From a virus (taxonomy: Duplodnaviria; Caudoviricetes), in the IMG/VR virus record IMGVR_UViG_3300030012_000241, positions 1-53,527 of that record: a stretch of DNA of 53,527 nt. One strand, 5' to 3'. This document shows, in pieces, positions 4,153 to 40,525 of this stretch (position 1 is the stretch's first letter; every line of letters begins with the position of its first letter). The position numbers were made by a program, and so were the translations under genes. The notes under the pieces are model-generated. The model was not told the origin of the DNA. It did no database searches and worked only from the letters and a program-made list of their open reading frames with translations.

Positions 4153-4182
4153 AAATCACAAATATTTTACAGGAGAATATAT

Positions 4183-4847: not shown

Positions 4848-4880
4848 GTAATATGGTTGGCTACTCCATAAAAGTAGCAC

Positions 4881-4951: not shown

Positions 4952-4953
4952 CT

Positions 4954-15409: not shown

Positions 15410-15852
15410 TGAGAAGTTTTCTAGGACTTAAATCTAGAGTAGGCATTACCTGTGGTGCATTTGATTTATTACATGCAGGTCATGTCACTATGTTAGAGGA
15501 GGCTAAGACGGTATGTGACTATCTAATAGTAGCATTACAGACTGACCCCTCAACAGATAGACCAGAAAAAAACAAACCTTTACAAAGTATTGTAGAAAGG
15601 CAGATACAATTAAAAGGTATCAGATGGGTGGACGATATTGTGGTTTATCATAGAGAGCATGAGTTGGAAGATATTTTATATACTTTCCCTATTGATGTAA
15701 GAATCATAGGAGAAGAATATAGAAATGCAATATTCACAGGTAAAGGCCTATGTAAAGAAAGAGGAATAGAAATATATTATAACAAGAGGGGACATAAATT
15801 TAGCACTACAGAACTAAGGAATAGAAATGAAGAGGAAAGAAAAAAAGAGTGA
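15409..15852 (+). CDS. Cytidylyltransferase (TagD/glycerol-3-phosphate type)
   Basis: GAFDLLHAGH (HxGH), R.H.FSTT. Confidence 0.85.
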   Translation: MRSFLGLKSRVGITCGAFDLLHAGHVTMLEEAKTVCDYLIVALQTDPSTDRPEKNKPLQSIVERQIQLKGIRWVDDIVVYHREHELEDILYTFPIDVRIIGEEYRNAIFTGKGLCKERGIEIYYNKRGHKFSTTELRNRNEEERKKE

Positions 15853-20426: not shown

Positions 20427-20853
20427 CGCTTGCTGTTATAGTTAATGTTATTATTCCATCTTCTATACTATATTCTATAGTATTACCCTCTAATGTTAGT
20501 ATTCCACTTGTACTAGGATTTTCTCCAAACAAGTTTTCTACTAACTGTCTGGATAACTGTGCATATATTCTAGATTCTAAGTTTCTAATAAATCTAGCAA
20601 GTGTAGTGTTTTCTTTGTCTCTTTCTATTTGTTCTTGCAAGGCTTTGAGTTCTTCTTTTATAGTCATCTTTCTAGTGAACTCTTGATTCTCTATGGTAAG
20701 GTAATGTGCAGACGTACCTATACCACTAAATGATGGGTTTTTAAATTTATGCACCATTTCATCGGCATGAAGATTGCTCACACCCAATACTGAAATTATA
20801 AATATTCCAATTAACGTTCCTAATTCAATCTTTTCTTTGGTCTTTTTTCCCAT
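20377..20853 (-). CDS. csgF: Curli assembly factor CsgF-like
   Basis: Signal peptide; mature start EMVHKFKNPSFSG; F.RNLESRIYAQLSRQL; C-terminal DGTQTVIQLP. Confidence 0.85.
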   Translation of the reverse strand: MGKKTKEKIELGTLIGIFIISVLGVSNLHADEMVHKFKNPSFSGIGTSAHYLTIENQEFTRKMTIKEELKALQEQIERDKENTTLARFIRNLESRIYAQLSRQLVENLFGENPSTSGILTLEGNTIEYSIEDGIITLTITASDGTQTVIQLPIGDFSF

Positions 20854-25258: not shown

Positions 25259-27517
25259 TTAATTAGATTCTTCTTGTTGTCTTTTTAAGGTTAATACAAA
25301 ATCTTTTAAGAAAGTTAATTTTGTAGCATTAGGCATGTTAAAATCAAAATTATCCTGTGTTTGTTCTTCAACATATCTTCTAAAAGCAGAACTGTTGTAG
25401 CTTACCATTCTATTATTTTCTATATTTGATATAGCTCTTTCTGCTCTTTCTATACTTCTATTAAGTTGATTACTTGATATAGCTTTTCCTATATTACTAA
25501 AAAAGTCTCCTAGTATTTCTCCTCTTTTTTCATCAATAAAAGCATCTAATTCATCAGCATCCATATCTGTCATACTTTTTGTTTGGACTGTCTGAGTCGT
25601 AGTAGGAGTAGGAGTTGGAGTTGGAGTTGGAGTAGGTGTTGTTTCCTCACCTGTCTCTTCACCTGTCTCTTCAGTAACTACCTCAGTTGTTGGAGTAGTA
25701 ACAACATCCTCGATGTCAAACCTTATCTCACTTAAAGCAGGAGGTATAGTAGCATTTATTATTCTTTTAACTGTTATTTCATAATTAAGAAGTTTTTGTT
25801 CTACTGTCTCACCATCTAACTCTCTTATAAAATTTGGTAAATCTTCTATGTTAGTTATCTTGCCTTTTTCAAAGTTTTTATCAATAAAACTCTGCATGTT
25901 ATAAACAGTAAATAGGTTATTACGTAAAATCTTTCCTACAGCTTCACTATTATTTTCGCCTCTATTTGCAATATCAGCAAACAATGCTGGCATAACTGCT
26001 CTACTTGTTAAATCAATATCATTACCCACAAGTATCTGTTGATTATTTAATGTGCTTATAATTTCATACAAATAAGGTTTTGTATTATTAGCTCTTAAAA
26101 GATTATCTACTACCATTGGGTCTAACTTTTCGTTAGTCAAGGGGTCTACACCATCCGAACCTTTTTTAACTTGGTCGATAACAAATTGAGCTGATACTCT
26201 TCTTAGCTCATCGTCTGATATACCTTGGTCGTTAAAAAAAGCATTATAGGCAGGGAATCTTTTTAATGAATAATAAACTGTTGATGCTTTGTCAACATAG
26301 GCATCAAAAACTGCTTCTTCTCCTTCTACTCCATATCTTAATGTTTGTTTTAAAGTTCTGTTATTTTTTAACTTAACATCTTGACCTGTGCCTGTAGGAT
26401 TTCTAATAAGATTAACAAGTACACCTTCCATAAGAGGTCTTAGGTCATCAATTTCTTTTGCATCTATTTCAGGTGTTGGTGAAAGCCCACCTATAGCTGC
26501 ATCTACATCTGTTTCTTCTCTATATGTAGGATTACCATAAACGTCTATTCCCTCAATCGGTATTACAATTCTTGTTTGTGTTCCAAAACCAGTCTCAACT
26601 TCTCTTGTTACAGGCTCTCCTATCTTTGTAATCTTACCTTTAACTTGTCCTGATGTAATTGCATCTCTCAATTTTATTAGTATGCCATCTATTCTTGAAG
26701 AACCATAAAGACTTGCCATTCTTTCTTGATAACTTTTACTTGCTTGATTAAGTTCTGCCATCTCTCTTGCAACATCTTCACCATAAACTTTAGCTAGTTC
26801 AGCTTGTAAAGTTTCTGAGCTTTCTAAATTTTTGTAATCTAAAGTTTCAGGGGTTTCTATTCCTATAACTTTTCTTGCAAAATTACTAAATCTTTGAAAA
26901 GGATTTGAGCCATTAATTCTATTAAGATATTTATTAGCATCTAAAATAGACATATCTGGGTCAGGAATATCTAAACCTTCATCGTATGCTCTTTGTGCAT
27001 CAGCTATTTCTGCTTGAAAATCTGAGCCTGTTATGATGCTATTAAGAAAAGAAGCATAACTAGAATTATCTTTTGTTAATCCTGCAAACTCCCCAGTCCC
27101 TGAAATAATATCTCTAAGAGCTGCTGCCTGTAATACTCTATATTTATTTTCATCAACTTTACCATCTACTATATAACCATTTGGATTATTTTCTGGGTCA
27201 TATACTGCATTAGTTGTATATTTTAAAGCATTATTACTATGGTTTTGTAGCCAAGTTTTAAAAGGAATATTCTTATCGTCTAAAAAAGCACTCTTACTTG
27301 TAAACTGTTCTGTTAAAGGGTCAGTAAAATTTGATTTTATAATTTCATTTAAACTTTCACCAAGAGGAGCTACAGCAGAATCAATAAGAAAATCTTTTAT
27401 TCTATCCCTTCTATCTTTTTTTCTTCTTCTATCTTCAGCTTTTTCTGCTCTATCTCTAGCATCTCTAAATTGTTTTTGTGCATATTCTATGCCACCATCG
27501 CCATCATATAAGCCCAT
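25259..27517 (-). CDS. Putative internal virion protein
   Basis: 752 aa, in the ejection-protein position; TP-repeat linker. Confidence 0.65.
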   Translation of the reverse strand: MGLYDGDGGIEYAQKQFRDARDRAEKAEDRRRKKDRRDRIKDFLIDSAVAPLGESLNEIIKSNFTDPLTEQFTSKSAFLDDKNIPFKTWLQNHSNNALKYTTNAVYDPENNPNGYIVDGKVDENKYRVLQAAALRDIISGTGEFAGLTKDNSSYASFLNSIITGSDFQAEIADAQRAYDEGLDIPDPDMSILDANKYLNRINGSNPFQRFSNFARKVIGIETPETLDYKNLESSETLQAELAKVYGEDVAREMAELNQASKSYQERMASLYGSSRIDGILIKLRDAITSGQVKGKITKIGEPVTREVETGFGTQTRIVIPIEGIDVYGNPTYREETDVDAAIGGLSPTPEIDAKEIDDLRPLMEGVLVNLIRNPTGTGQDVKLKNNRTLKQTLRYGVEGEEAVFDAYVDKASTVYYSLKRFPAYNAFFNDQGISDDELRRVSAQFVIDQVKKGSDGVDPLTNEKLDPMVVDNLLRANNTKPYLYEIISTLNNQQILVGNDIDLTSRAVMPALFADIANRGENNSEAVGKILRNNLFTVYNMQSFIDKNFEKGKITNIEDLPNFIRELDGETVEQKLLNYEITVKRIINATIPPALSEIRFDIEDVVTTPTTEVVTEETGEETGEETTPTPTPTPTPTPTTTQTVQTKSMTDMDADELDAFIDEKRGEILGDFFSNIGKAISSNQLNRSIERAERAISNIENNRMVSYNSSAFRRYVEEQTQDNFDFNMPNATKLTFLKDFVLTLKRQQEESN

Positions 27518-28149
27518 TACTCTTCTCCTCTAGCTAGTAAACTAGCACTATCTCCCTCTTCTACTTGTCTATCTAATAAACTTTCAATAGGAGGTAACTC
27601 TTCTATTCTTTTTGCAATATCAGTTGGAATAACTCCTTCAGGAACTCCACCACTTTCTTTTGCTTTTTTTCTTGCTGCTACATTTGCAATATTTTTTGCT
27701 CGCATAACAAGCATTTTTTCTTCTTCATCAGACTCTCCATCTTCCATGTCAATCATGTTTCCAAGGTCATCTGAATCTAATCTATAACCTACTCCTGCTT
27801 TTTCAGCTAAAGCCATAAGTAAATATGCAAAAGGTTCTAGCAACATTAACATTAAATCAGGATTCCATTTACCTTCTCTGAAACCTACATATCCCATTTG
27901 TAAAGCTAAATCCATAATTGGTACTCCATCACCTATAGCTAAAACAATAGGTACATAGTTTTCTTCATCCAATAATTCTAATGCTGTATATTGCAAAGCC
28001 TCATGCATATCAGTAAAGTCTGGAGCAGTTTCAAAAGGTCTACGGTCTTCTACAGGCTGTGTCCAAGACTGACCTGGGATTGCATAGCCTCTATCCGAAA
28101 AAGCTTTTATAGCTTCTGGATTCATTTCTTCGCCCATCATTTTTTCCAT
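27517..28149 (-). CDS. Putative virion protein
   Basis: IPGQSWT...PFE.AP, GFREGKWNPDL; late operon. Confidence 0.65.
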   Translation of the reverse strand: MEKMMGEEMNPEAIKAFSDRGYAIPGQSWTQPVEDRRPFETAPDFTDMHEALQYTALELLDEENYVPIVLAIGDGVPIMDLALQMGYVGFREGKWNPDLMLMLLEPFAYLLMALAEKAGVGYRLDSDDLGNMIDMEDGESDEEEKMLVMRAKNIANVAARKKAKESGGVPEGVIPTDIAKRIEELPPIESLLDRQVEEGDSASLLARGEE

Positions 28150-28157
28150 AATTTCTC

Positions 28158-29318
28158 CTAACCGTATATTTTATATTCTTGTCTAAAGGGAGCATCTACT
28201 TGAAGCATAGATGATGCATTGTCAAAACCAAAGACTCCCATATATTTTTTGTAAACGTCATCACCAGGATTTAACTGTGCATTGACATACGGAGTATAAG
28301 CCATACTTTGAGCTTGCCAATTATTACCCAGAGGACTCATAAAGTTATCTATTTCTCCTAACGATATAGTGCTTTTAGTACCCATTCCTATAACATTTGG
28401 TACAACTCTAGTGTTGTAATTAATTACAGGGTCGCCAGGTTTGCCTGTAATAGCATACATAGCTTCTGTTCGTATACCTTGTCCTATTCCCTCTTCAACT
28501 TTTTTCTCAACATACTCATAAGGCTTAAACTCTTCAAACCTTTTTCTAGCTTTAGAATCAGGGTCTAAAATATTTATATCACTCAAAAAGTCTTGACCTT
28601 TCTCAATTAAGTTATCTCCTAAATCTTTGAAAGACTCAGAGAAATTTTTATAATCAGCATCTACACCAGTAGTTATATCTCCTACAGTTCCGTAAGGTTT
28701 ATTTTCATATCCATTAACTGTTCCAGTTACGTCTCTTACTACTCCTGCATCTTCTCTAGGCACAACATCTGTTGGTGGAGTTTCAGTTGAAGTTGAAGTA
28801 GAAACAACATCTACTACTTCTGCATTTGCTTTTGCAGCTTCTTGTTCTAAATTAAACTGTTTTACATTTTCACTTGTTGGTAAAGTATCTAAAGAAGATT
28901 TGAAATCTGCTGAGAATACAGAAGTTCTATCAGGACTTAGTTCAAATTTACCAGTCTTTAAAAAGTTACCTGCTCTGTTTAAACTATTACTAATAGCTGT
29001 GCTGACACTTGTATATGCATTCTTTATCCATGTACCACCAACATTAACCATTTCTAAAGTTTTTCCTAGAGCTTTACTTAAAAAACCTGAATTTGGGCCA
29101 AGCAGTTTACTTGACCAAGTAGCCAACTTGCCTGCCGTTCCAAACAAACTCCCTAAAGCTCCCATTGCATAAGGCATCAAAAACATCATACCTATTTGAC
29201 CAACTATTCCTAGTTTGCCAATACCTTTCATAACACTTTTAAAAGTTTTCTTAATTCTTTTACCAATCTTTTTTACTGTTTTTTTAAGACCTTTCCATGC
29301 CTTACTTAATAATCCCAT
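28158..29318 (-). CDS. Putative internal virion/pilot protein
   Basis: Basic amphipathic N-terminus followed by a Gly-rich hydrophobic segment. Confidence 0.65.
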   Translation of the reverse strand: MGLLSKAWKGLKKTVKKIGKRIKKTFKSVMKGIGKLGIVGQIGMMFLMPYAMGALGSLFGTAGKLATWSSKLLGPNSGFLSKALGKTLEMVNVGGTWIKNAYTSVSTAISNSLNRAGNFLKTGKFELSPDRTSVFSADFKSSLDTLPTSENVKQFNLEQEAAKANAEVVDVVSTSTSTETPPTDVVPREDAGVVRDVTGTVNGYENKPYGTVGDITTGVDADYKNFSESFKDLGDNLIEKGQDFLSDINILDPDSKARKRFEEFKPYEYVEKKVEEGIGQGIRTEAMYAITGKPGDPVINYNTRVVPNVIGMGTKSTISLGEIDNFMSPLGNNWQAQSMAYTPYVNAQLNPGDDVYKKYMGVFGFDNASSMLQVDAPFRQEYKIYG

Positions 29319-29328: not shown

Positions 29329-31752
29329 CTAACTAAAGAACTCATTTATTTTTGTTGATGCGGCAGTAAAGTTTTGCCCCCAATATTTAGCAGCATCGCC
29401 TTCTGCACTTGCAGCCGACATCATAGCTTGTAACTTTCTATTAGCAGTATCATTAGTCCACCTAAAATCATAGTCTGCTTGGTCTCTTAATTCTTGCCAA
29501 AGAAAAGAGTTTGCAGCCTGTGTTAGTCCAAAAGCATTCTGAGCATTCTGTTGATTGACTGCATTTTGTGCAGCAGTATCAGCAGTATTAGCTCTTCTTC
29601 TCCAATCAATATTAGAGTTGATAACTGCTTGTGCATTTGCAGAGTTCCATTGTTGCCTATTAAAATTTTGTTGCTCGTTAAATTGTTCTACTTGATTCAT
29701 AATAGCTGCATTAGCTCTGTTTACATCAGTAAGCCTTTGAGCATCTCTAGCTTCAGCAGCATTTGATGCTTGAGCATTAAATTGATTTGTAGCATTTATA
29801 TAACCTGCATTGTATTGTCTTATCTGTGTCTCAATTTGTGCCATAAACTGTTGAGCTTGTCTGTCATTTGTAGCATTAAATTGACCCATAGCATTTATTG
29901 CTGATTGATTACTTAACAATCTTTGTTGTTCATATTGAGCTTTAATAACATTTGCTTGTTGTCTGTTACTTAAGTTTGCCATGTTAGTAGTCAAGAATGC
30001 TTTTGCATTTTCTATTTGTGCTTTCTGATAAAAGTCAGCATCAGCTAAATCAGCTCTAGCAATAGTTGCAGCATTTTGTACAGCAGCTTGTTGTTCAAAA
30101 TTAGCATCAGTTAAACTTACAGTTTGTAAAAATTTAGAGTTAGCTAATTCTGTTTGTTGCTCCATAGTCATATTAGCAACATCTATCTTAAATGCACTTT
30201 CTGCATTCTTTAAAGTTACTTGTTGTTGTCTTTGAGCATTTGCCTCAGAAACAGCAGCTTCTATACCTCTTTGCTCTGATACACTTCTTTGTATAGCTTG
30301 AGCATTTGCTTGAGCCAAAGGTAAAGATGCTTGAATAATAGTATTAGCTAAAGCATCTCTAGCTACTGATGAAGCTTGTAAACCTCTTTTAGCTAACATA
30401 GCTTCTACAGATGCTACAGCAGGTCTAGCCCATGTAGGTATTTCACCCTCTTCTATACCAGTTAATAGACTTTCAAGTTGATTAGATACTAAAGCTTCTT
30501 CAGGCAATCCTTCTATTATGCCTCTTTCTTCTTCTGTAAAGTCTGTTAATCTATCTTCAAGAGATTCAGGGTCATTACCTAAATCAGTAATAGCACTTTC
30601 TTGTAACCCTGCATTTCTTAATTGTTTTTTAGCTCTAGTAATTCTTGCTAAATCTGTTCCTGCATTTCTAGCTACTGTAGCTTTTGCATCATCTGATAAT
30701 GCTCCTGTTACTTGTTCAGCAACTGCACCAGTTACAATCGCTTCTTCTACATCTACATCAGCTACTACAGGTGCATCTTCTACCTTTGCAGCTCTAGCTA
30801 ATTTTACTTCATCTTCTTGTGCAGCTCTAGCTTGAGCAGCTTGTTCTATAGTTTCTGTAGGTGTAGCTGTAGCTGTAACCTCTCTAGCTGGGTCTACTTC
30901 ACGTACTTGGTCTTGTGTAATTGTAGTTACATCTTCGTCTGCTGTTGTAGGAGCAGTAAAAGTTTCTGCTTGACCTGCATCTGGAGCAACAACAGTAGGT
31001 GCTTCTGTATCTTCTCTATTGATACCCATTACTGTAGGAACAGGAACAGTACCTTCTGGAATATTACCTGAAGCTATATCACTTGCACCTCTTCCTGTTA
31101 AAATATTACGTGACCTTCTTTCACGGTCAAAGGCTGCTCTTTTGGCTATTTCTGACATGCCTGATAAAGGGTCTGGGTCTGTAGAAGTACCACCACCTTC
31201 ATCTGAACCGACTCTTTCCCAACTTGTACCATTCCATCTATAAGTGATACCATTTATAGTCATGGTGTCGCCTACTTTTAGTCCACCATCATCACCACCA
31301 CCATTGTTGTTACCACCGTTTTGGTCTCCACCACCATTCTGTTCACTTCCACCATTCTGTTCACTTCCACCGTTTTGTTGTGTACCGTTTTGTGAGAATG
31401 ACCCAGCATTAGCCATGTCAGCACCCTGATTACGTCCCTGTCCACGTCCACGTTGACGACCTCTTCTTGCAGCTTCTTGGTAATCTTCTTGAGTATCTCT
31501 ATCTCCAGTAGTAAAACCTGGGCCACTTGATATAGCCACAGGAGCAGGCTGTGTAGGTTGTTTTTCTTGAGGAGGTGCTACAGGTCTACCAACAGCAATA
31601 GGGTCATTATCCCTACCACCACCAGGACCACCTATGGAAATCATATCATCCCTTGTAGGTCTTGCTCCTCTTCTGGCCATGACGTTACCACCAGTTCTAT
31701 AATCTTTTCTTTTTAATTTGGCTCTTTTTCTTTTTGATTTATATTTTGCCAT
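29329..31752 (-). CDS. Putative internal virion protein (Q/N/A-rich coiled coil)
   Basis: 807 aa; QFNA-type repeats; QNGG low-complexity region. Confidence 0.7.
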   Translation of the reverse strand: MAKYKSKRKRAKLKRKDYRTGGNVMARRGARPTRDDMISIGGPGGGRDNDPIAVGRPVAPPQEKQPTQPAPVAISSGPGFTTGDRDTQEDYQEAARRGRQRGRGQGRNQGADMANAGSFSQNGTQQNGGSEQNGGSEQNGGGDQNGGNNNGGGDDGGLKVGDTMTINGITYRWNGTSWERVGSDEGGGTSTDPDPLSGMSEIAKRAAFDRERRSRNILTGRGASDIASGNIPEGTVPVPTVMGINREDTEAPTVVAPDAGQAETFTAPTTADEDVTTITQDQVREVDPAREVTATATPTETIEQAAQARAAQEDEVKLARAAKVEDAPVVADVDVEEAIVTGAVAEQVTGALSDDAKATVARNAGTDLARITRAKKQLRNAGLQESAITDLGNDPESLEDRLTDFTEEERGIIEGLPEEALVSNQLESLLTGIEEGEIPTWARPAVASVEAMLAKRGLQASSVARDALANTIIQASLPLAQANAQAIQRSVSEQRGIEAAVSEANAQRQQQVTLKNAESAFKIDVANMTMEQQTELANSKFLQTVSLTDANFEQQAAVQNAATIARADLADADFYQKAQIENAKAFLTTNMANLSNRQQANVIKAQYEQQRLLSNQSAINAMGQFNATNDRQAQQFMAQIETQIRQYNAGYINATNQFNAQASNAAEARDAQRLTDVNRANAAIMNQVEQFNEQQNFNRQQWNSANAQAVINSNIDWRRRANTADTAAQNAVNQQNAQNAFGLTQAANSFLWQELRDQADYDFRWTNDTANRKLQAMMSAASAEGDAAKYWGQNFTAASTKINEFFS

Positions 31753-31991
31753 TATTTCACCTCAAATAATTTATCTACCTTTTCATGTAGCTTTTCTACT
31801 CTCTCCATAAGAATACTCATATCTTCTTTTACTTCTTGTTTTGTAACATAATCTTTTGCTATTTCTTCTCTAGTTTTATTTAGTAATATATCTATTCTTT
31901 TTGCTTCTGTTTCGTTTTTACGTATAGCAAAAATTATAGGAGCTACAACTAAAGTTAAAACTATGTTCCAAAAGAAATACATGTCTTCCAT
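31752..31991 (-). CDS. Small TM + coiled-coil protein
   Basis: WNIVLTLVVAP...TREEIAKDYVTK. Confidence 0.7.
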   Translation of the reverse strand: MEDMYFFWNIVLTLVVAPIIFAIRKNETEAKRIDILLNKTREEIAKDYVTKQEVKEDMSILMERVEKLHEKVDKLFEVK

Positions 31992-31992: not shown

Positions 31993-33825
31993 TTATATAC
32001 TATCCCCAGGGTATCTGTTTGACCATATAGTAAAACTATATTTGACTCCTTTGGTTAATGGTTGACATGCATGACCATGTGTTACCATACCTGGAAACAA
32101 TATACATTTTCCTACAGGTATATCTTTATTACTAAAATTTTGTCTAGGATAAACTAAATCAGCACCTTCGTAGTCATCATTTAGTTTTATACTTCCTGTA
32201 ACTAAACTTGCATCTGTATGTAATGGTAATTCTCTTTGTGTATCTACTGAGTATCTCATTGTAAATGCATCTCTAAGTCCATACATTGACATTGGTTGCC
32301 AATAATTTTCTATAATTGGAACTATGTGCTTTTCCCAATGAGCTTCCAACTCTTCCCATAAACCTAGTTCTTTTAACCTTATCTCTTGTGCAGGGAACTT
32401 ATCGTATTCTAAAGAACCCCAACCTCCATGATTGTCAGCTATCTCAATCATTCTTTCACATTGTTCTTGTGTCATAAAATCAACAAGCAATATGTCATCA
32501 TCTAATATTTCAAAATCTCTTGGTGGTATAAATAAACTTTCTTGTTTTGGAAAAAATCTGTTATACATTTGGTCAAATTTTTTCTTGGTTAAATCACCAC
32601 CATTACCATGATAAATACAACTACAACATCCTGTTAAAGGATTAAAAAGTTGACCTTCAAGCATTGTAGTATTTGCTTCGTGTGTTTGAAATATATAACC
32701 TTCATAGTCTAGTTGTATATCAAACTTACCACTTAAAAATAGTTTTTGATAATATAACTGGTCATCTCCATCATCATCTACTGAGTCTGTGGCTAGCATT
32801 TTTTTAAGCTCACCTACTTCACCTATAAACGTTCCACTATTTAAAAATCTATATTTAGTTGGAGCATCTGGAAATACATGTTCTAAATCTGCATCAGGCC
32901 AACAATATTGTTCTGCTGAAAACAAAACTTTACAATTAAATCCTAAATACCTTTCTGTAATAGTTTCTAAATTATCTGCATAAAAAACATCGTATGCATC
33001 TGTAAATAAAATTACATCATTGTCTGGTAACTTGTTGATATATTCTCTTAACAAGTTTACTTTATGTCCACCACCAGGACCTACCATATCAGTCCCTTGC
33101 CACTCTACATTGTTTCCTAGATTTACTATATCTATTCCACAATGCCTAGCACTTGTAAATAATCTAGAACATTTCTTTCTATCTGTTCCAATAGTAAGAG
33201 GATGTACCTTAAAATTTCTAGCTATACCTGCTGGAACTTCTATATCGCTTGGACTTTCTTCTCTTGATATTTGATTACAAGAATCTTCTTTCAATGCAAC
33301 TACGTTTTTCAAAATTTTCTCCTTTATTAATTTAGGTACATATTCATCAGCAGGAATAATTTTATTTATATTATCTAATAAAATTTTTGCTGTTGAGGGT
33401 TTTATTATGTAGCCTGTTAAATTATAAGGATAAGAAGGTATCTCCAATTTATCATCTATACTTATAACTTTTTCAGGTTCGTTCTCGTTTCTCTGTAAGT
33501 ATATAAAATCGTATTTGTTTATTAAAGCTTGATAGTATTTTTCATCCCAACTTTGATTTATTACTGCATCATCTTCTAAAATAATAACAGGTTCATCTAA
33601 ATCTAAACATGTTGTCCATGCTTTTTGATGAGATAAGAAACATGCTACTTCGCTTCTTAAGACTTGCCTGTTTTGAAAAGGGTCTCTAAACTCCTCATCG
33701 ACTACAAAGTTATCAAGTCTTTTGTAATCTATTGCTTCTATAAATTGATAATTAGTTAAATTATTTTTATAAAATTGTTTCTTTCTATCTGTTCTTCGTT
33801 GAAGGCTTATTACTAATTTTTTCAT
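31993..33825 (-). CDS. Three-domain collagen-modifying-like enzyme: GT25 + PLOD-type glycosyltransferase + Fe/2OG lysyl hydroxylase-like
   Basis: GT25: ISL.RR.DR, EVACFLSH, LEDD. PLOD-GT: GGGHKV, FTDAYDV, LFSAE..CWPD, RFLNSG.FIG, DDQLYY, HGNG. Hydroxylase: RY...Q..L..HTD, DYEG, FPG..TH.H. Confidence 0.88.
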   Translation of the reverse strand: MKKLVISLQRRTDRKKQFYKNNLTNYQFIEAIDYKRLDNFVVDEEFRDPFQNRQVLRSEVACFLSHQKAWTTCLDLDEPVIILEDDAVINQSWDEKYYQALINKYDFIYLQRNENEPEKVISIDDKLEIPSYPYNLTGYIIKPSTAKILLDNINKIIPADEYVPKLIKEKILKNVVALKEDSCNQISREESPSDIEVPAGIARNFKVHPLTIGTDRKKCSRLFTSARHCGIDIVNLGNNVEWQGTDMVGPGGGHKVNLLREYINKLPDNDVILFTDAYDVFYADNLETITERYLGFNCKVLFSAEQYCWPDADLEHVFPDAPTKYRFLNSGTFIGEVGELKKMLATDSVDDDGDDQLYYQKLFLSGKFDIQLDYEGYIFQTHEANTTMLEGQLFNPLTGCCSCIYHGNGGDLTKKKFDQMYNRFFPKQESLFIPPRDFEILDDDILLVDFMTQEQCERMIEIADNHGGWGSLEYDKFPAQEIRLKELGLWEELEAHWEKHIVPIIENYWQPMSMYGLRDAFTMRYSVDTQRELPLHTDASLVTGSIKLNDDYEGADLVYPRQNFSNKDIPVGKCILFPGMVTHGHACQPLTKGVKYSFTIWSNRYPGDSI

Positions 33826-33841
33826 TTACTAAGTATACCAC

Positions 33842-34594
33842 TTAGAATGGGCCTCCACCAAATCCTCCACCTCCTCCACCGAAGCCACTTCTTGTAGCAG
33901 AAGCGAAAAGAGGTTTTGTTAAATCTTGGCTAGAAGTTTGTGTTGCAATTACATCTCCGTTTGCATCTATTGCTCTAAGAACCATTGTTAAAGAAGTTCC
34001 TGATAAAGCACCAGTATCTGATGATGCAGTTCCAAATCCTTGCGATGAAGTTTTCTGTGCTGACCATATAAATGATGTAAAAGTACCATTATCATCAGCC
34101 GTACTTTGATTTGCAATAGTAACAAAGTTACCACTTGTAGCACCTGAACCAGTAGTAAAAGTACCTATACCACTTGTTACAGTAACAAAAGTTAATTGTA
34201 TTTGTATATTAGCAGGTTCATGGACAAAAGTTAATGGTATATTATTATGATTGTAACTAACTGATGAAGTATTACTAAAATTATCATGTCTAAATCTAAC
34301 TCTACTTTCACCTGGTTGATAAGCAAATCCTATTGCTACTCCACCTAAAGCAGTTCCACTTGAAGAACCTATACCTGAAAAAGATGAATTACCTGGATTA
34401 GGTGTACTTCCCATAATAACACCTGATACTCCTGCATAATCATCCATACTTATTTGGTCAGTAGAATTTTTACTAATTAAAGCACTATACTCACCCATAG
34501 TAATAGGACTAGAACCACCAAACTTAGTCTGTAAATCTGAAAAAGACTTTTGATTTCCTGCTGAACTAATACTTCCTGCTACTGGGCCACTCAT
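33842..34594 (-). CDS. Putative tail fibre-associated/adhesin protein
   Basis: Ser/Thr/Gly-rich; SFSDLQTKFGGSSPITMGEY N-terminus; Gly-rich C-terminus; follows the fibre. Confidence 0.55.
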   Translation of the reverse strand: MSGPVAGSISSAGNQKSFSDLQTKFGGSSPITMGEYSALISKNSTDQISMDDYAGVSGVIMGSTPNPGNSSFSGIGSSSGTALGGVAIGFAYQPGESRVRFRHDNFSNTSSVSYNHNNIPLTFVHEPANIQIQLTFVTVTSGIGTFTTGSGATSGNFVTIANQSTADDNGTFTSFIWSAQKTSSQGFGTASSDTGALSGTSLTMVLRAIDANGDVIATQTSSQDLTKPLFASATRSGFGGGGGGFGGGPF

Positions 34595-34596
34595 AT

Positions 34597-34779
34597 TTAT
34601 ATTCCGTTAAAAAAAGCATCCACGATAGATTTAGTGTGAGCATCTAACTCACTTCTATCTGTGTCTTTGTTCCAAAAATAATCTTCACCATCATCACATC
34701 TAATGATAACTAAAGCTTCATTTTCTACAGTCTCAGGTGGTTTAAAACAAAATATTGTTTGTACTACTTTACTAGCCAT
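34597..34779 (-). CDS. Hypothetical protein (fibre assembly?)
   Basis: 60 aa, overlaps the fibre stop. Confidence 0.6.
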   Translation of the reverse strand: MASKVVQTIFCFKPPETVENEALVIIRCDDGEDYFWNKDTDRSELDAHTKSIVDAFFNGI

Positions 34780-37700
34780 TGTTTTCTAACTCCTCTATTC
34801 TTGCTATAAGTTCTTCATATCCTTCCATATCTCCTAATCCTTTTGGAGGATGTGAGTCTTCTGCTAATTCTTTAATAGCTTCTATAAGAAGTGGAACTAA
34901 CTTGTCATACCATACTGTTAAATATTTCTCATCAATAGGTGCTGTTGTTACTACTTCTGGTAACACATCTTGTACCTCTTGAGCTGAGACACCAACTTGT
35001 CGTTCATCGTTTTCGTAACCTAACTGTTTAGCTACTTCATTCTCTCTAAAGTAATAACCACTTAAAGCTAATACTTTTTCTAGAGCATTAGGTATAGTAC
35101 CCTCAAAGTCTTTTAGTCTTGCATCAGAGTAGAAAGCTGTAATATTACCACCTGCTCTAATCTCACCGTTTCCAATACTACTTGTAGAAGCATTGACAGC
35201 TAGGCTATTTACCTCAGCATCTGAGTCATCAGTAAAGCCACCTGCTTCACCTTTTTGACCTTTCTGACCTTTATCGCCTTTTTGTCCTTTCTGACCTTTT
35301 TCACCTTTCTGACCTTTTACAGTTGAAGGTTCACCTTTCTGACCTTTAGTAGAGTTGTCATCACCTTGTTGTCCTTTCTGACCTACTTCACCTTTTTGGC
35401 CTTTAGTAGAGTTGTCATCACCTTGTTGTCCTTTCTGACCTACTTCACCTTTCTGACCTTTATCACCTGCAACTGTTGAAGCTGCACCTTTCTGTCCTTT
35501 CTGACCTACTTCACCTTTTTGTCCTTTAGCACCTGCGACTGTTGAAGCTGCACCTTTTTGACCTTTCTCTCCTTTAGAACCTGCTACTGTTGAAGCTTCA
35601 CCTTTCTGACCTTTAGAACCAGTTACAGAATTACCTTGTTCTCCTTTCTGACCTTTAGAACCATCGTTTCCATCATCGCCATCAGAGCCTCCAGCACCTT
35701 TCTGTCCTTTAGAACCTGTATCACCTTTCTGACCTTTAGAGCCATCATTACCGTCATCACCGTTATTACCTGCTGCACCTTTCTGTCCTTTAGAACCTGC
35801 ACCACCTGTATCACCTTTCTGACCTTTAGAGCCATCAGAACCATCAGAGCCTGCTGCACCTTTCTGACCTTTATCGCCATTAGTTCCATTATTTCCATTA
35901 TTACCTGCTGCACCTTTTTGTCCTTTAGAGCCATCGTTACCATCGCCACCAGCAGCACCTACTTCACCTTTTTGACCTTTAGAACCTGTGCCACCTGTGC
36001 CACCGACTTCACCTTTTTGACCTTTCGAGCCTGTTCCACCTGTGCCACCTACTTCACCTTTTTGTCCTTTAGCACCATCGTTACCATCGTCTCCATCAGA
36101 ACCGTTAGAACCTGCTGCTCCTTTCTGTCCTTTTTCACCTTTAGAACCTGTGCCACCTGTTCCACCTACTTCACCTTTCTGACCCTTAGAGCCATTGCTT
36201 CCGTTAGAACCTGCTTCACCTTTCTGACCTTTAGAACCGTCATTACCATCATTACCATCTCCACCAGTAGCTCCAGTTTGTCCTTTCTGTCCTTTCTCAC
36301 CTTTAGAACCTGTAGAACCTGTGCCACCTACTTCACCTTTCTGACCTTTGTCTCCAGTAGAACCTGTAGAACCTACTTCACCTTTCTGTCCTTTAGAACC
36401 TGTAGCTCCTGTTTCACCTTTCTGACCTTTATCACCTTGGTCTCCAGTTCTTGCAAAAGTTACAATTAAGTCTTCACCATTTGAGAATGAAGATGCTGAA
36501 CCACTTACATAACCTACAGGAACTTTGAAATATCCTGAAGCTTCTGTTATAGAACCACTAATTGTAAACAGAGCAAAGTCTGAAGCATCTAATTTGTTTG
36601 ATATTCTGACATGACCTTTTATAGTAGAATCACTATCATCAATAGTTCTTAGATAACTTTGTATATCAGTACCACCTGAATCTTGGTCATCAATATACAT
36701 TATATTTGCACTAGATACAGTACCGTTATTTAATCTTAACTCACCGTTACCTGGGTCTGCATCTGAAGTACCTGTATCAAAGTCATAAGCAAATGTTTGT
36801 CCACCAAAGTTTCCTTCTTGTCCTTTTACACCTTTTTGACCTTTTTCGCCTTTCTGACCTTTAGAACCTGTAGCTCCTACTTCACCTTTCTGTCCTTTAG
36901 AACCTGTTGAACCAGTATCTCCTGTCGTTCCTTTTTGACCTTTTTCACCTTTACTTCCATCACTACCGTCATTACCAGCAGCACCTGTGTTACCTGTTTG
37001 TCCCTTTTGGCCTTTATCTCCTTTAGAACCTGTAGCTCCTACTTCACCTTTTTGACCTTTAGAACCGTCTGAACCGTTATTACCTGTAGCACCTACTTCA
37101 CCTTTTTGTCCCTTAGAACCATCACTACCGTCATCACCAGTAGCACCTGTGTTACCTACTTCACCTTTTTGTCCCTTAGAACCTGTAGCTCCTACTTCAC
37201 CTTTAGAACCTTTTTGTCCTTTAGTACCATCTGAAGCAGCACCATCAACACCAGCCTCACCTTTCTGACCTTTATCTCCTGTAGCTCCTACTTCACCTTT
37301 TTGGCCTTTTTGTCCTTTAGCACCATTTGAACCATTACTACCACTAGCACCTACTTCACCTTTCTGACCTTTAGAACCGTCATTACCATCATTACCTGTA
37401 GCACCTACTTCACCTTTTTGACCTTTATCTCCTACTTCACCTTTCTGACCTTTATCACCATCAGAACCTGCATTACCTGTAGCACCTACTTGACCTTTTT
37501 GTCCTTTATCTCCTTTAGCTCCTGTTTCGCCTTTTTGTCCTTTGTCTCCTGTAACTCCTACTTCACCTTTCTGTCCCTTAGAACCAAGAACTCCACCTTC
37601 ACCTTTCTGTCCTTTAGAACCTTGTAAAGCTACATCTTCTATAGTTCCTTTTTCCCAAGCACTTGCACTTACATCATAGTAAGCAATTAAATCTGTGCTT

Positions 37701-40525
37701 GTAGCATCTGTACCTGTACTAAATCCTGTTAATGCACTTCCAACATTTGCTGAGTCTGTAACATCAGCATTGGCTTCTATCCCATCTAATTTTGTGTGGT
37801 CTGCATCTGTAAATACATTTGAATCACTAGCACTATCTACTAATGTTCTAATTTCTGCTGCTGTTTGGTCTTGTGTAGCACCAGCTTCTATGTTGTCGAG
37901 TTTACTATGGTCATCATCTGTAAACACATTTGAGTTTGTTGCTGCCTCAACTAATGTTCTAATCTCGGCTGCTGTTTGGTCTGCTGTAGCACCACTCTCA
38001 ACTGAATCAAGTTTTGTTTCTTGAGCATCAGTCATTAATCTCTTATCGGATGCATCAGTAAAATTAGTTGTACTAAATGTTGGAGATGCTCCACTTATTA
38101 CTGACTGGTCTAATGCTTTTACATCTGCAATACTTGCAAGTTCACTATCCATTAATGCACCTGCACTTGTTACATTATCAGTATCTGTTACATCAGCATT
38201 AGCTTCTATACCATCTAACTTACTATGGTCAGCAGATTCAAAAGGAACTGAAGCTGTACCGTTAATAGTTAATGCATCTGTTTCTAATGTTCCATCAATA
38301 TCTACATTACCTGATATATCTAAACTTGGAGAAACAATTTCATGTGAAAACACAAAGTTATCATTAGCTGCACTCCAGGCTATAGTTGCATCTGTTGAAG
38401 CATTAACTGCATCTTGAATTGTAATACCTGCACCATCTGCTGAACCTGACGTATCTCCTGAACCTTTGTTAAGTGTTATGTTTTGGTCTTCAACATCTAA
38501 GGTTGCAGTATTAAGTGTTGTGGTGCTTCCATTTACAGTTAGATTTCCTCCTATGGTAGCATTACCTGTAGTTGTAACTGTAGCAAAGTTTACATCTGAA
38601 TCTGTTTCTACTGCTTGTCCGATAGCTATTGTAGGTGTAGCACCTTCGCCTGAGTTATTACTTAAAGTAACACCAGTTCCTGCTACAAGACTATCAACAT
38701 AGTCTCCTGTTGTATCTGTACTTAGAGCAACTGCATTAGCTACTATTGTTGCATTTAATGTACCATTAGCTAAATCTGAAATAGTTACATTACCAGATAA
38801 ATCTCCACCTAATGTAATTGTAAAATCATCTACATTAAAATCTAAAGTTCCATCACCATCTTGATAAGTTACACTAATACCACTTTCAGTATTAGAAGAA
38901 ACCATAGCACCTACGATGTCTTGTACTCTTTCTGTTGTGTGATATAAATTACTTGAACCTTCTGACAGGTCATCTGTTGTGGCTGCTGCTATTCTTGCAT
39001 CTGCTCTAGCATTTGTAAAATATAAATTAGAGCTACCTTCACTAACACTATCAGTATCAAAAGATATGTTTGCAGTACCGTCAAAAGAAGTACCGTTTAT
39101 TGTTCTTGCTGTTTCTAATGCTGTGGCTGTGGCTGCATTTCCTGTTGTGTCTTGGTTTAGTGTTCCAATAGTAAAGTCTAAAGTACCATCGCCATCTTGA
39201 TATGCTACAGTAATACCACTCTCAGTATTACCAGATACCATAGCACCTACTATGTCTTGTATTCTTTCTGCATTTAGAGTTACATCACCTGAAGAAACTG
39301 TAAAGTCAGTACCATCAAAAGTAGCAACACCAGCATTTGTTTCTGTGGCTAGTTCACCTGTAATTGTAATTGTATTACCAGAACCTGAAGTATCTATACC
39401 TTCTCCACCTGCAATAGTTAATGTTTCACTATCTAGGTCTATTGCAACTGTACCACTATCAGTAGTAGCATCTAAATCTTGAGCTGTTACTTGAGCATCA
39501 ACATAAGTCTTAATAGCTTTAGCTGAAGCAAGTGTTGTGTCTGTTCCTGCTACGGAAGATATATCTGTATCTAAAACTCCAGACTTAAGATTGTCTACTT
39601 CTATATTAGATAACGTATTGTTATCTACATCTATTGTTTTGTTTGTTAAAGTTTGTGAACCTGTTAAAGTTGCTACAGTAGAATCAATAGCAACTGTTAA
39701 TGTATTACCAGAACCTGCTGTATCAATACCTGTACCACCAGCTATATCAAGAGTTTCACTATCTAAATCAATAGATAATGCTCCACCTGAATCACCTTGG
39801 AAGTCTAAGTCTTGTGCTGTTAGTTGTGCATCAACATAAGCTTTAATAGATTGTTGAGTTGCTAAAGCAGTAGCACTATTTGAAGTTAGTCCATCTTCAT
39901 CAAGAATACTTGTAACAGTTTCACCACTACCTAATACTAAGCTATCAATATTAGCAGTACCATCAATAAATAAATTTCTCCACTCTTGGGTTGTTGAACC
40001 TAAGTCATACGTATCGTCATCGTCTGGTATAATACTAGAATCTACATCTGCACCAAAAACAACATTGTCTGATGATGCATCTCCTAATGTTAATGTTCCT
40101 CCATTTAATGTAGTAGTACCTGTAACAGTTAGATTTCCTCCTACAGAAACATTACTTGTTGTAGTTATTGTATCTATATAAGCATCTTTGAATCGTAAAG
40201 CACTTGTACCTAGGTCAATGTCGCTATCTGTGACAGGAGCAATAACTCCATTGCCTATATATAATTGCTGTACTGAACTGCTTGAATCATCTATCCAAAA
40301 TTCAATATGGTCATTAGTTGTATCTATTAATACTTTATTAAGAGGTGTGACTACCCCTGCATCTCCAATAACACCTATGACTGGGCCTTCGGCTGCTGTG
40401 CCGTCATGCTTGTGTCCTGTTTGGTTATGAAAAGCATTTGCTATAGCATTATATTCATTATTGAATATTGCTGCTGTGATGGTATCGCCATCTGAAAACG
40501 TACTTTGTCGTGTATATCCTGCCAT
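34772..40525 (-). CDS. Collagen-like long tail fibre with C-terminal intramolecular chaperone (peptidase S74-like)
   Basis: Anchor GHKHDGT, internal repeats, two long Gly-X-Y tracts, YSDARLK autocleavage motif. Confidence 0.92.
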   Translation of the reverse strand: MAGYTRQSTFSDGDTITAAIFNNEYNAIANAFHNQTGHKHDGTAAEGPVIGVIGDAGVVTPLNKVLIDTTNDHIEFWIDDSSSSVQQLYIGNGVIAPVTDSDIDLGTSALRFKDAYIDTITTTSNVSVGGNLTVTGTTTLNGGTLTLGDASSDNVVFGADVDSSIIPDDDDTYDLGSTTQEWRNLFIDGTANIDSLVLGSGETVTSILDEDGLTSNSATALATQQSIKAYVDAQLTAQDLDFQGDSGGALSIDLDSETLDIAGGTGIDTAGSGNTLTVAIDSTVATLTGSQTLTNKTIDVDNNTLSNIEVDNLKSGVLDTDISSVAGTDTTLASAKAIKTYVDAQVTAQDLDATTDSGTVAIDLDSETLTIAGGEGIDTSGSGNTITITGELATETNAGVATFDGTDFTVSSGDVTLNAERIQDIVGAMVSGNTESGITVAYQDGDGTLDFTIGTLNQDTTGNAATATALETARTINGTSFDGTANISFDTDSVSEGSSNLYFTNARADARIAAATTDDLSEGSSNLYHTTERVQDIVGAMVSSNTESGISVTYQDGDGTLDFNVDDFTITLGGDLSGNVTISDLANGTLNATIVANAVALSTDTTGDYVDSLVAGTGVTLSNNSGEGATPTIAIGQAVETDSDVNFATVTTTGNATIGGNLTVNGSTTTLNTATLDVEDQNITLNKGSGDTSGSADGAGITIQDAVNASTDATIAWSAANDNFVFSHEIVSPSLDISGNVDIDGTLETDALTINGTASVPFESADHSKLDGIEANADVTDTDNVTSAGALMDSELASIADVKALDQSVISGASPTFSTTNFTDASDKRLMTDAQETKLDSVESGATADQTAAEIRTLVEAATNSNVFTDDDHSKLDNIEAGATQDQTAAEIRTLVDSASDSNVFTDADHTKLDGIEANADVTDSANVGSALTGFSTGTDATSTDLIAYYDVSASAWEKGTIEDVALQGSKGQKGEGGVLGSKGQKGEVGVTGDKGQKGETGAKGDKGQKGQVGATGNAGSDGDKGQKGEVGDKGQKGEVGATGNDGNDGSKGQKGEVGASGSNGSNGAKGQKGQKGEVGATGDKGQKGEAGVDGAASDGTKGQKGSKGEVGATGSKGQKGEVGNTGATGDDGSDGSKGQKGEVGATGNNGSDGSKGQKGEVGATGSKGDKGQKGQTGNTGAAGNDGSDGSKGEKGQKGTTGDTGSTGSKGQKGEVGATGSKGQKGEKGQKGVKGQEGNFGGQTFAYDFDTGTSDADPGNGELRLNNGTVSSANIMYIDDQDSGGTDIQSYLRTIDDSDSTIKGHVRISNKLDASDFALFTISGSITEASGYFKVPVGYVSGSASSFSNGEDLIVTFARTGDQGDKGQKGETGATGSKGQKGEVGSTGSTGDKGQKGEVGGTGSTGSKGEKGQKGQTGATGGDGNDGNDGSKGQKGEAGSNGSNGSKGQKGEVGGTGGTGSKGEKGQKGAAGSNGSDGDDGNDGAKGQKGEVGGTGGTGSKGQKGEVGGTGGTGSKGQKGEVGAAGGDGNDGSKGQKGAAGNNGNNGTNGDKGQKGAAGSDGSDGSKGQKGDTGGAGSKGQKGAAGNNGDDGNDGSKGQKGDTGSKGQKGAGGSDGDDGNDGSKGQKGEQGNSVTGSKGQKGEASTVAGSKGEKGQKGAASTVAGAKGQKGEVGQKGQKGAASTVAGDKGQKGEVGQKGQQGDDNSTKGQKGEVGQKGQQGDDNSTKGQKGEPSTVKGQKGEKGQKGQKGDKGQKGQKGEAGGFTDDSDAEVNSLAVNASTSSIGNGEIRAGGNITAFYSDARLKDFEGTIPNALEKVLALSGYYFRENEVAKQLGYENDERQVGVSAQEVQDVLPEVVTTAPIDEKYLTVWYDKLVPLLIEAIKELAEDSHPPKGLGDMEGYEELIARIEELENNG
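35237..36445 (-). repeat. Collagen Gly-X-Y tract 2 (~400 aa, few interruptions)
   Basis: GSK-GQK-GEV type triplets. Confidence 0.95.
36800..37621 (-). repeat. Collagen Gly-X-Y tract 1 (~270 aa)
   Basis: GSK/GDK-GQK-GEV-GAT triplets. Confidence 0.95.

Follow-up and report, generated by a model that had tools for sequence, protein, structure and literature searches.

A Phage-Encoded Three-Domain Enzyme as a Candidate for Hydroxylation and Glycosylation of Lysines in a Collagen-Like Tail Fibre

Introduction

Can a bacteriophage modify the lysines of its own collagen-like fibre with the chemistry that animals apply to collagen? The question is raised by the viral record IMGVR_UViG_3300030012_000241, in which the gene for a 610-residue protein with three enzyme-like domains lies close to that of a tail fibre rich in Gly-X-Y triplets. 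The whole record (53,527 bases, CheckV completeness 100%) was analysed and is referred to here as the window. In the excerpts of the literature available, hydroxylysine-linked collagen glycosylation is treated as an animal feature with mimivirus as an outlier, while a 2010 comparative-genomics paper, in the part available, predicts that some bacterial beta-hydroxylases modify collagen-like proteins and notes cyanophage dioxygenase arrays. A full-text literature search limited to main text found no description of lysyl hydroxylation or hydroxylysine glycosylation in a bacteriophage, in agreement with the original prediction for this locus, whose author likewise knew of none. Here, the architecture of the enzyme and its linkage to collagens with lysine in the Y position (Y-Lys) are strongly supported, and from sequence comparison the enzyme probably hydroxylates, then glycosylates, lysines of the phage's own fibre.

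Domain Architecture of the Enzyme

The original prediction described an open reading frame (ORF) of 610 amino acids (aa) with three domains, and every motif string that it quoted is present in the translation, which contains FRDPFQNRQVLRSEVACFLSH, LEDD, IPADEYVP, GGGHKV, DAYD and FSAEQYCWPD as well as RFLNSG, DDDGDDQLYY, HGNG and HTD...THGH. A phmmer comparison with all PDB sequences matched 15 distinct chains. Human LH3 was matched at 1.2e-34 over two stretches (residues 210-381 and 445-598), mimivirus R699 at 4.4e-27, human COLGALT1 at 8.7e-9 (residues 5-167), the hydroxylase domain of mimivirus L230 at 5.3e-8 (residues 437-599) and mimivirus R655 at 8.9e-4, the remaining matches being PiuC hydroxylases only, at about 0.009. 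The family phrog_61, named '2OG-Fe(II) oxygenase' and filed under auxiliary metabolic genes, spans residues 1-610, and NCBIfam holds no model for the enzyme. The enzyme family was aligned (17 sequences, down to 48% identity; alignment A1), and per-domain profiles built from IMG/VR homologues were each searched against PDB sequences. An AlphaFold2 model based on the 17-sequence alignment reached a mean predicted local distance difference test score (pLDDT) of 85.2 and a predicted template modelling score of 0.82. It is good for both glycosyltransferase (GT) domains and poor at hydroxylase residues 469-477 and 516-540, and Foldseek therefore says little on the hydroxylase domain. Against the PDB, LH3 ranked first in Foldseek (3.3e-20), followed by the isolated LH3 GT domain 6wfv, R699, COLGALT1, R655 and then a bacterial beta-1,4-galactosyltransferase of family GT25. 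As had been predicted, all three domains are nearest to PLOD, COLGALT and L230 among solved structures, and not to lipopolysaccharide (LPS) or DNA-modifying enzymes; catalytic residues are conserved in all three. The predicted absence of the LH3 accessory domain can also be observed directly, in that the GT_PLOD match ends at residue 422 and homology to lysyl hydroxylase (LH) begins at residue 437, leaving about 15 residues between them. Coordinates of all features are collected in Table 1.

At the N-terminus, Pfam GT25 (PF01755) matches residues 2-162 with 82.3 bits (cut-off 24). The corresponding family profile (A2, 19 sequences) found COLGALT1 at 1.2e-30 (110 bits), mimivirus R655 at 7e-15 and a bacterial 'glycosyltransferase family 25 protein' at 2.6e-12 (50 bits), and Foldseek gave 3.3e-12 for COLGALT1, its root-mean-square deviation being 3.1-3.8 Å over about 220 columns, and 5e-7 for the bacterial beta-1,4-galactosyltransferase. 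Among solved structures, the phage GT25 domain is thus closer to COLGALT than to the bacterial LPS-type GT25. Residues R14, E84, D85, D86, Y134 and D160 are invariant in all 17 aligned sequences. R14 and E84-D85-D86 align with R354 (pyrophosphate) and E435-D436-D437 (ribose and Mn2+) of GLT25D1, and Y134 and D160-E161 with Y494 and D522-E523, D522 being the catalytic base. This numbering was anchored on the 'YW' motif (Y494-W495) given in the available part of the GLT25D1 cryo-EM paper and on the HMMER alignment, and the same offset yields all four residue numbers found in that part of the paper. The lid-loop STDE motif of COLGALT1 is unaligned; its counterpart may be the S-x-S-D-I-E conserved at residues 190-195. 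The N-terminal non-catalytic GT domain of COLGALT1 is absent, the phage GT25 domain beginning at residue 2.

In the middle of the chain, Pfam GT_PLOD (PF25342) matches residues 207-422 with 174.7 bits (cut-off 27). The family profile (A4, 18 sequences) found R699 at 1.3e-42 and LH3 at 1e-39 to 5e-38, these two accounting for all six PDB matches at E <= 0.001. In Foldseek, superposition on the galactosylhydroxylysyl glucosyltransferase domain of LH3 (6wfv) gave a target-normalised template modelling score of 0.83, a deviation of 2.3 Å and 30% identity. K255, D276, D279, E305, W309 and N329 match R699 K62, D83, D86, E114, W118 and N138, while D354, D355, Q356, H406 and N408 match D162, D163, Q164, H216 and N218. 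According to the available part of the report on the R699 product complex, D83, D86 and H216 are the Mn2+ ligands and K62, E114, W118, N138, D162, D163, Q164 and N218 hold the two sugars. Across the 17 aligned sequences, K255, D276, D279, E305, N329, D355, Q356, H406 and N408 are invariant and D354 is nearly so, and the W309 position is variable; at the position of LH3 W145, the window enzyme has Trp and some relatives have Tyr or Ile.

The C-terminal oxygenase appears to be PLOD-like despite a weak Pfam score, because LH3 and L230 are matched both by phmmer and by the family profile. This profile (A3, 18 sequences) found the L230 hydroxylase at 1.6e-14 and LH3 at about 7e-12, followed by PiuC at 0.012; no TET/JBP, AlkB or prolyl hydroxylase was matched among PDB sequences. 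The HxD...H triad for Fe(II), H536, D538 and H585, is invariant in 17 of 17 sequences, as is K595. It had been predicted that a Lys stands where an Arg usually binds 2-oxoglutarate (2OG), and K595 indeed aligns with the Arg of 'GTRY' in LH3, which we take to be R729, and with that of 'GKRY' in L230. In other 2OG oxygenases, Lys fills the same anchoring role. The Arg of L230 is at chain position 227/235 and corresponds to R887, which binds 2OG according to excerpts of a review.

The anchor was followed through a search of 1.84 billion proteins, in which 14,351 matches reached E <= 1e-3, 486 of them with E <= 1e-30. In the 150 best-scoring representatives, compact forms (<=700 aa, pattern HxD...H...[KR][YFW]) have Lys in 47 of 49 cases, and long forms (>700 aa, pattern present) have Arg in 34 of 40. 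For the hydroxylase region, a tree was built quickly by maximum likelihood from 86 of 151 rows, those without the pattern near the C-terminus being dropped. In this tree, the 47 Lys-type rows are split from the Arg-type long forms by a branch of length 2.16 with a value of 89 in the Shimodaira-Hasegawa-like approximate likelihood ratio test (not starred); two rows, P0158 and P0167, are false positives of the pattern on a very long branch. An enzyme killed by the exchange of Arg for Lys was considered and rejected: because the Lys is invariant in the aligned family and marks the compact clade as a whole, it is not read as decay.

Collagen Fibre and Gene Cassette

The proposed substrate is, as predicted, the third gene upstream of the enzyme gene, with all of them on the minus strand. 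Its Collagen match (PF01391) scores 260 bits (cut-off 27.2). In runs of at least five triplets, 208 Gly-X-Y triplets are found, somewhat fewer than the roughly 220 first estimated. Most frequent among them are GQK (48), GSK (24), GEV (19) and GDK (11). Lys occupies the Y position in 94 triplets and the X position in none, and its content outside the collagen runs is 2.7%. The second of the two collagen blocks is made up of runs at residues 1361-1633, 1665-1682, 1687-1704, 1709-1723 and 1738-1764.

The fibre gene, a 60-aa ORF, a 250-aa ORF and the enzyme gene follow one another with gaps of -8, 2 and 16 bases. A simple scan of the minus strand from 40525 to 31993 found no terminator-like site, and a strong one lies after the capsid gene (43304-43283), so that co-transcription of the fibre and enzyme genes appears plausible. 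The 250-aa ORF has no match in Pfam, NCBIfam or PHROG. Relatives of it occur at 10 of 88 loci (L001-L088) and those of the 60-aa ORF at 8 of 88; because so few loci carry them, neither is regarded as a core part.

Table 1. Features of the enzyme and fibre locus, in window coordinates
Feature	Position	Strand	Basis or remark
Three-domain enzyme gene, 610 aa	31993..33825 (stop codon included)	-	ORF, Pfam, PDB, phrog_61, AlphaFold2
GT25 domain, COLGALT1-like, residues 1-200	33226..33825	-	Profile, Foldseek, residue alignment
PLOD/LH3-type GT-A domain (galactosylhydroxylysyl glucosyltransferase-like), residues 207-422	32560..33207	-	Pfam, profile, Foldseek
PLOD-type Fe(II)/2-oxoglutarate lysyl hydroxylase domain, residues 437-610	31996..32517	-	Profile, invariant residues
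250-aa ORF between fibre and enzyme, variable part of cassette	33842..34594	-	ORF
Second intervening ORF, 60 aa, variable and assigned to no family	34597..34779	-	ORF
Tail fibre, 1917 aa, proposed substrate	34772..40525	-	ORF, Pfam, tail-fibre PHROGs
First collagen block, fibre residues 969-1243	36797..37621	-	Runs 969-1097, 1100-1243
Second collagen block, fibre residues 1361-1764	35234..36445	-	Long run, then short interrupted runs
Peptidase_S74 intramolecular chaperone domain, fibre residues 1800-1859	34949..35128	-	PF13884, 41.2 bits (cut-off 22)

Just 3' of the enzyme gene, a 79-aa ORF (31752-31991, minus strand) is kept at 75-100% identity in 23 of the same 88 loci. It matches phrog_12220 (function unknown), and its first third resembles a membrane helix by eye.

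Linkage to Y-Lys Collagens

In IMG/VR, an enzyme relative is encoded by 510 stretches, and the association of enzyme and fibre was surveyed in 85 IMG/VR loci. A same-strand upstream collagen ORF, having at least 10 Gly-X-Y triplets and Lys at Y, was present at all 35 loci whose upstream DNA spans at least 5 kb, at 37 of 38 with at least 4 kb and at 42 of 47 with at least 3 kb, while none of 45 loci with at least 5 kb downstream had a collagen ORF on that side. Many of the surveyed loci are near-copies, so that locus counts overstate independence; the 38 informative loci, three of them from isolates, and the window fall into 14 clusters at 70% enzyme identity, and 14 of 14 are positive. The same upstream collagen is found in the isolates CRP-6 (gp60), S-CAM9 (gp222) and S-PRM1 (gp158), with a tail assembly chaperone between fibre and enzyme in CRP-6. 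Co-occurrence of homologues with Lys-rich collagens across phages, which had been proposed as a check, is therefore borne out.

The composition of the linked collagens points the same way. In 50 distinct ORFs with 8023 triplets, Lys is found 2246 times at Y and never at X. A second count with slightly different de-duplication (48 ORFs, 8115 triplets) gave 36.5% Thr and 28.4% Lys at Y, and Arg never at X and five times at Y. In this second set, the residue preceding Lys is mostly Q (1237), followed by S (468), D (281) and A (182), and the residue following K-G is Q in 1446 cases and E in 682. As a control, the first 80 loci were taken among at least 136 IMG/VR stretches with ten glycine codons spaced nine bases apart, a sample in which some Gly-repeat ORFs are no true collagens and a few loci belong to giant-virus bins. 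After duplicates were removed, 76 ORFs with 4162 triplets remained, in which 191 Lys (4.6%) occupy Y and 75 occupy X, so that Y-Lys is about six-fold lower than in the enzyme-linked collagens. Among the 45 control ORFs with any Lys, 27 carry it at X; Arg is found at both positions, and the main Lys context is K-G-D. Thr at Y, at 36.1% in control collagens without the enzyme, is equally common there. The three-domain enzyme was found in none of the 62 control records searched, two of which had single-domain matches, a GT25 ORF in G016 and an oxygenase in G020. The G016 contig (L226, G016:C1:20293-23871) deserves separate mention: its GT25-only ORF matches the family profile at 2.2e-13 over positions 14-174, and its collagen has Lys 5 times at X and 15 times at Y.

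A split form of the system is found at one IMG/VR locus (survey locus L229), where a 176-aa GT25 ORF (3865-4395) is followed directly by a 417-aa ORF with GT_PLOD and LH (4408-5661), and the upstream collagen ORF has 26 Y-Lys and no Lys at X.

Regarding distribution, a word-indexed search gave 923 matching protein clusters at E <= 1e-3 among 8000 scored. Among the 120 matches listed, 118 have GT25 and GT_PLOD and two shorter ones GT_PLOD only; the name supplied by the source for some of them is 'GR25 family glycosyltransferase involved in LPS biosynthesis' (JGI). ESM Atlas clusters with the enzyme architecture are 98-100% viral, Uroviricota being commonest. Among GenBank phages, 11 records have a relative at 40-49% identity, annotated as hypothetical protein or 2OG-Fe(II) oxygenase. 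Nine of these come from Synechococcus myoviruses (S-CAM9, S-PRM1, S-8S53/55/56), and the other two are a single-virus amplified genome and the Roseobacter siphovirus CRP-6; the isolates infect Synechococcus and a strain of the Rhodobacteraceae.

Several variants were seen beside these. At loci of cyanomyovirus type, the genes for the collagen fibre and the three-domain enzyme are separated by two or three small 2OG-FeII_Oxy_3 oxygenases (L002 8839-10004; survey locus L230, distinct from the mimivirus gene, 7643-9359; L229 3245-3892), with a DUF6445 protein also between them at survey locus L230. In the collagens of these loci, Pro is commonest at X, and the small oxygenases may be prolyl hydroxylases for the same fibre. 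Other fusions comprise GT_PLOD, GT25 and a HalD halogenase-like part (P0244, 753 aa), GT11, GT10, GT25 and GT_PLOD (P0268, 1781 aa), GT25, GT_PLOD and GT2/Anp1 (P0224, 737 aa), and a methyltransferase ahead of the three-domain enzyme (P0133, 875 aa).

Proposed Mechanism

The following process is envisaged by analogy with the animal and mimivirus enzymes, from which the order of steps, the occupancy and the activity itself are inferred. The enzyme would be a late product of infection, expressed along with the tail fibre, and would act on unfolded chains in the host cytoplasm before the triple helix forms. During the first stage, the C-terminal domain would hydroxylate the Y-Lys of G-X-K-G, mostly G-Q/S/D-K-G-Q/E, to hydroxylysine, using Fe2+, 2OG and O2, with K595 holding the 2OG carboxylate. 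During the second stage, the inverting GT25 domain would add a first hexose to the new hydroxyl with Mn2+, a UDP-sugar and D160 as the base. During the third stage, the retaining LH3/R699-type middle domain would add a second hexose onto the first. By animal analogy the sugars would be Gal and then Glc, and Glc first, as in L230, is possible. No sugar-nucleotide epimerase was seen among the window genes, and the host would therefore have to supply the UDP-sugars. The outcome would be a fibre with up to about 94 hydroxylysines per chain bearing mono- or disaccharides, distributed over two collagen blocks. An S74 chaperone domain is normally cleaved off after trimerisation, and its removal here would leave only about 40 residues past the last collagen run. 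This would place the modified collagen close to the fibre's distal end, with possible effects on host contact, stability or protease resistance. The benefit may be a more stable fibre, one shielded from proteases or one better at host adhesion.

Evaluation of Alternative Explanations

Several observations weigh against the proposal that the enzyme hydroxylates and then glycosylates the fibre. In the hydroxylase domain, the Pfam 2OG-FeII_Oxy_3 match is below threshold (residues 531-601, 17.3 bits, cut-off 27), residues 516-540, which include the HxD motif, have a pLDDT of only 40-48, and the usual 2OG-anchoring Arg is replaced by K595. The accessory domain, which in R699 provides K438 and dimer contacts required for activity according to the available part of that report, is missing from the phage enzyme. 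In the acceptor cleft of the GT25 domain, W495 and K470 of COLGALT1 are replaced by N135 and N113, Trp being found at the former position in only one of 17 homologues (L022); in the available part of the cryo-EM paper, mutation of K470 or W495 abolishes or reduces activity, and the W495 Ala mutant is inactive. On the genomic side, no collagen ORF was found at six loci with 2.9-4.6 kb of upstream DNA, and five control records (18-85% complete) have Y-Lys-rich collagens with little or no Lys at X and no lysyl hydroxylase; the redundancy of the surveyed loci described above belongs here as well. Finally, the sugars are left unfixed by homology, because the GT25 domain of L230 transfers Glc and not Gal, as excerpts of the review state. 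The last point, together with the altered W495 and K470 positions, would suit another chemistry on the same fibre, in which each GT adds a single sugar to a different acceptor, for example with Glc on hydroxylysine as in L230 and glycosylation of the abundant Y-Thr, or in which the hydroxylase alone acts on the fibre. Thr is indeed the commonest Y residue of the linked collagens; however, as described above, it is just as common without the enzyme and does not track it, whereas Y-Lys does, and the middle domain retains every acceptor-sugar residue of R699. This alternative is judged unlikely.

A role away from the fibre is suggested by database names that imply LPS biosynthesis, by the definition of GT25 on LPS enzymes, as the Pfam name records, and by a pelagimyophage paper that, in the part available, proposes O-chain modification by GT8-rich gene sets; the enzyme would then alter the host surface, for example LPS, and block superinfection. 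LPS synthesis, however, offers no role for a lysyl hydroxylase domain, COLGALT1 receives more than twice the bits of the solved bacterial GT25 from the GT25 profile, and the gene strictly adjoins Y-Lys collagens in a late structural operon, so this reading is regarded as very unlikely. Phage 2OG oxygenases and GTs are also known modifiers of DNA, from general knowledge and from excerpts of the literature, and the enzyme might hypermodify phage DNA in the manner of base J or the glucosylated hydroxymethyl bases of T-even phages. The oxygenase profile, by contrast, retrieves collagen lysyl hydroxylases with PiuC next and neither TET/JBP nor AlkB, and the gene sits in the fibre cassette and not in the replication arm, which leaves DNA modification exceedingly improbable. 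It could further be supposed that the Y-Lys residues merely stabilise a proline-poor helix electrostatically, the enzyme having hitch-hiked in a mobile fibre cassette. Pairs of the K-G-E/D type do stabilise the collagen triple helix, K-G-E makes up 682 of the Y-Lys contexts, and the cassette clearly moves between podo-, sipho- and myoviruses. But the main context is K-G-Q (1446 against 682), which forms no salt-bridge pair, purifying selection holds all catalytic residues in relatives down to 48% identity, and the three modules recur beside collagen whether fused or split; there is accordingly only a slight chance that this explanation holds. Modification of the fibre lysines by hydroxylation and then glycosylation thus stays the preferred reading. 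In its widest form, it would mean that tailed phages of SAR11, Synechococcus and Roseobacter, the bacteria most common in the ocean, run the full animal-type pathway in the bacterial cytoplasm with one 610-aa chain, for which neither the accessory domain nor a COLGALT-LH3 complex is required, that glycosylated hydroxylysine is a widespread virion modification of marine phages and no longer a speciality of animals and giant viruses, that the enzyme is a one-gene tool for glycosylated collagen in bacteria, and that the Lys-type hydroxylase is a separate old branch of PLOD; this is put forward tentatively, at somewhat less than an even chance.

Genome and Viral Setting

The plus strand of the window forms the replication arm, with primase-helicase, DNA polymerase A, ribonucleotide reductase and DNA methyltransferase, and the minus strand forms the structural arm, with terminase, portal, major capsid protein, adaptor, tail proteins and fibre as well as internal proteins including a transglycosylase. 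The large terminase is 71% identical to those of Pelagibacter phages HTVC115P, HTVC103P and HTVC104P, and the capsid protein is 50-59% identical (59% for HTVC115P, whose terminase stands at 71%); Roseobacter and Puniceispirillum HMO-2011-like podoviruses come next. From these terminase and capsid identities, the virus is most likely a podovirus that infects SAR11 or a marine alphaproteobacterium similar to it, the host being judged from these relatives. The three Pelagibacter phages are absent among the enzyme matches in the phage collection, and within positions 24,000-46,500 of the HTVC115P structural arm no collagen ORF was found, the two four-triplet runs there being due to chance; this is in line with joint gain and loss of enzyme and collagen. 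When 24 kb of the window was compared with phage records by megablast, a single 55-base match resulted. Marine, seawater or vent metagenomes account for all 20 of the sequencing runs listed with matches, and none of the listed runs is of RNA.

Other genes of the window were observed in passing. At the far end of the structural arm lie a CsgG homologue (19617-20426, minus strand, 166 bits) and, beside it, a CsgF homologue (20377-20853, minus strand), with a FecR-like protein (17899-19008, minus strand) and an adenylate/guanylate cyclase with a fused CHASE2 sensor (16169-17899, minus strand) nearby. A curli-secretion pair together with a nucleotide cyclase is unusual in a podovirus; the pelagimyophage paper, in the part available, includes a section titled 'Curli operon'. 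In the replication arm, an FkbM-type methyltransferase (13519-14082, plus strand) and a cytidylyltransferase-like protein (15409-15852, plus strand) stand beside the ribonucleotide reductase genes. Four big ORFs of the structural arm (29329-31752 and 25259-29318, minus strand), of 807, 386, 210 and 752 aa, matched no Pfam or PHROG family, and the 807-aa protein has long Gly/Asn/Gln-rich and Ala/Gln-rich stretches.

Significance

The modules of the collagen-modifying enzymes are placed on one short chain and, across hundreds of marine phage contigs, go with tail fibres of Lys-rich collagen, the carriers including Synechococcus and Roseobacter phages as well as one virus closely related to SAR11 phages. 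Should the enzyme be active, a new type of post-translational modification would be added to those of phage virions, at the part that contacts the host. Database labels (LPS glycosyltransferase, '2OG-Fe(II) oxygenase', auxiliary metabolic gene) would then need correcting, and the PLOD family would gain a branch bearing on the origin of the animal enzymes. According to excerpts of the literature, glycosylated human collagen is not yet producible in bacteria, where the human glycosyltransferases are hard to express; an active compact enzyme should be able to function in the bacterial cytoplasm.

Comparison with Known Systems

Virion proteins of Acinetobacter phages and mycobacteriophages are reportedly glycosylated by phage-encoded glycosyltransferases, which are said to place O-glycans on Ser/Thr of capsid or tail-tube proteins. 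The system proposed here likewise consists of a phage-encoded enzyme decorating the phage's own structural protein; in contrast, its acceptor would be a hydroxylysine made by the same enzyme in a collagen repeat.

Among animal enzymes, LH3/PLOD3 (6fxk, 8zgc), along with mimivirus R699 (9dyt), shares with the middle domain of the phage enzyme the GT-A fold and the residues for Mn2+, UDP-sugar and acceptor sugar, and LH3 has the same HxD...H triad in its LH domain. Unlike LH3, the phage enzyme has no accessory domain, has Lys for Arg and has GT25 fused in front, its length being 610 aa compared with 738. The phage N-terminus aligns with the catalytic C-terminal GT25 domain of COLGALT1 (9evj, 9u7h, 8zgc chain U), while the N-terminal non-catalytic GT domain is missing and W495 and K470 are both Asn. 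Animals make COLGALT1 and LH3 as two distinct proteins, which associate in a complex, as the available part of PMC11897130 describes, whereas both modules are carried by one chain in the phage.

The closest precedent is mimivirus L230. The original prediction credited it with the PLOD part, which holds but understates the case, as a GLT25D1-like GT25 domain is also present according to the review. In the excerpts available, L230 is a protein of 895 aa that hydroxylates and glucosylates collagen Lys, with a C-terminal PLOD-like hydroxylase (537-895) and an N-terminal domain (1-194) that shares 27.7% identity with GLT25D1, contains E106-D107-D108 and adds Glc to hydroxylysine. A fusion of GT25 and PLOD is therefore already known in a giant virus, on the word of those excerpts. 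Long relatives of about 850-1000 aa, with GT25, GT_PLOD and a C-terminal oxygenase, are also found among the matches of the phage enzyme. One of L230 type (P0195, 899 aa) matches COLGALT1 over 5-193, the whole of LH3 including the accessory domain over 232-898 and the L230 hydroxylase at 2e-52, from which the middle region of L230 itself is inferred. The phage enzyme and L230 have the same order, an N-terminal GT25 with an E-D-D motif and a C-terminal PLOD-type hydroxylase, and the LH domain of L230 (PDB 6ax6) is the best solved match of the phage hydroxylase profile. Both are viral enzymes for the virus's own collagen-like proteins, as is only proposed in the phage. They differ in that the phage protein is about 290 aa shorter and without the accessory domain, has Lys where L230 has R887, and belongs to a virus of bacteria instead of amoebae. 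By its sequence, the phage enzyme would work like COLGALT1, LH3 and L230, and it appears to form a distinct compact subfamily and not an orthologue of any of them, because the K470/W495, accessory-domain and 2OG-Arg features are not found in it. It seems best described as an L230-like enzyme minus the accessory domain, with a Lys-type hydroxylase.

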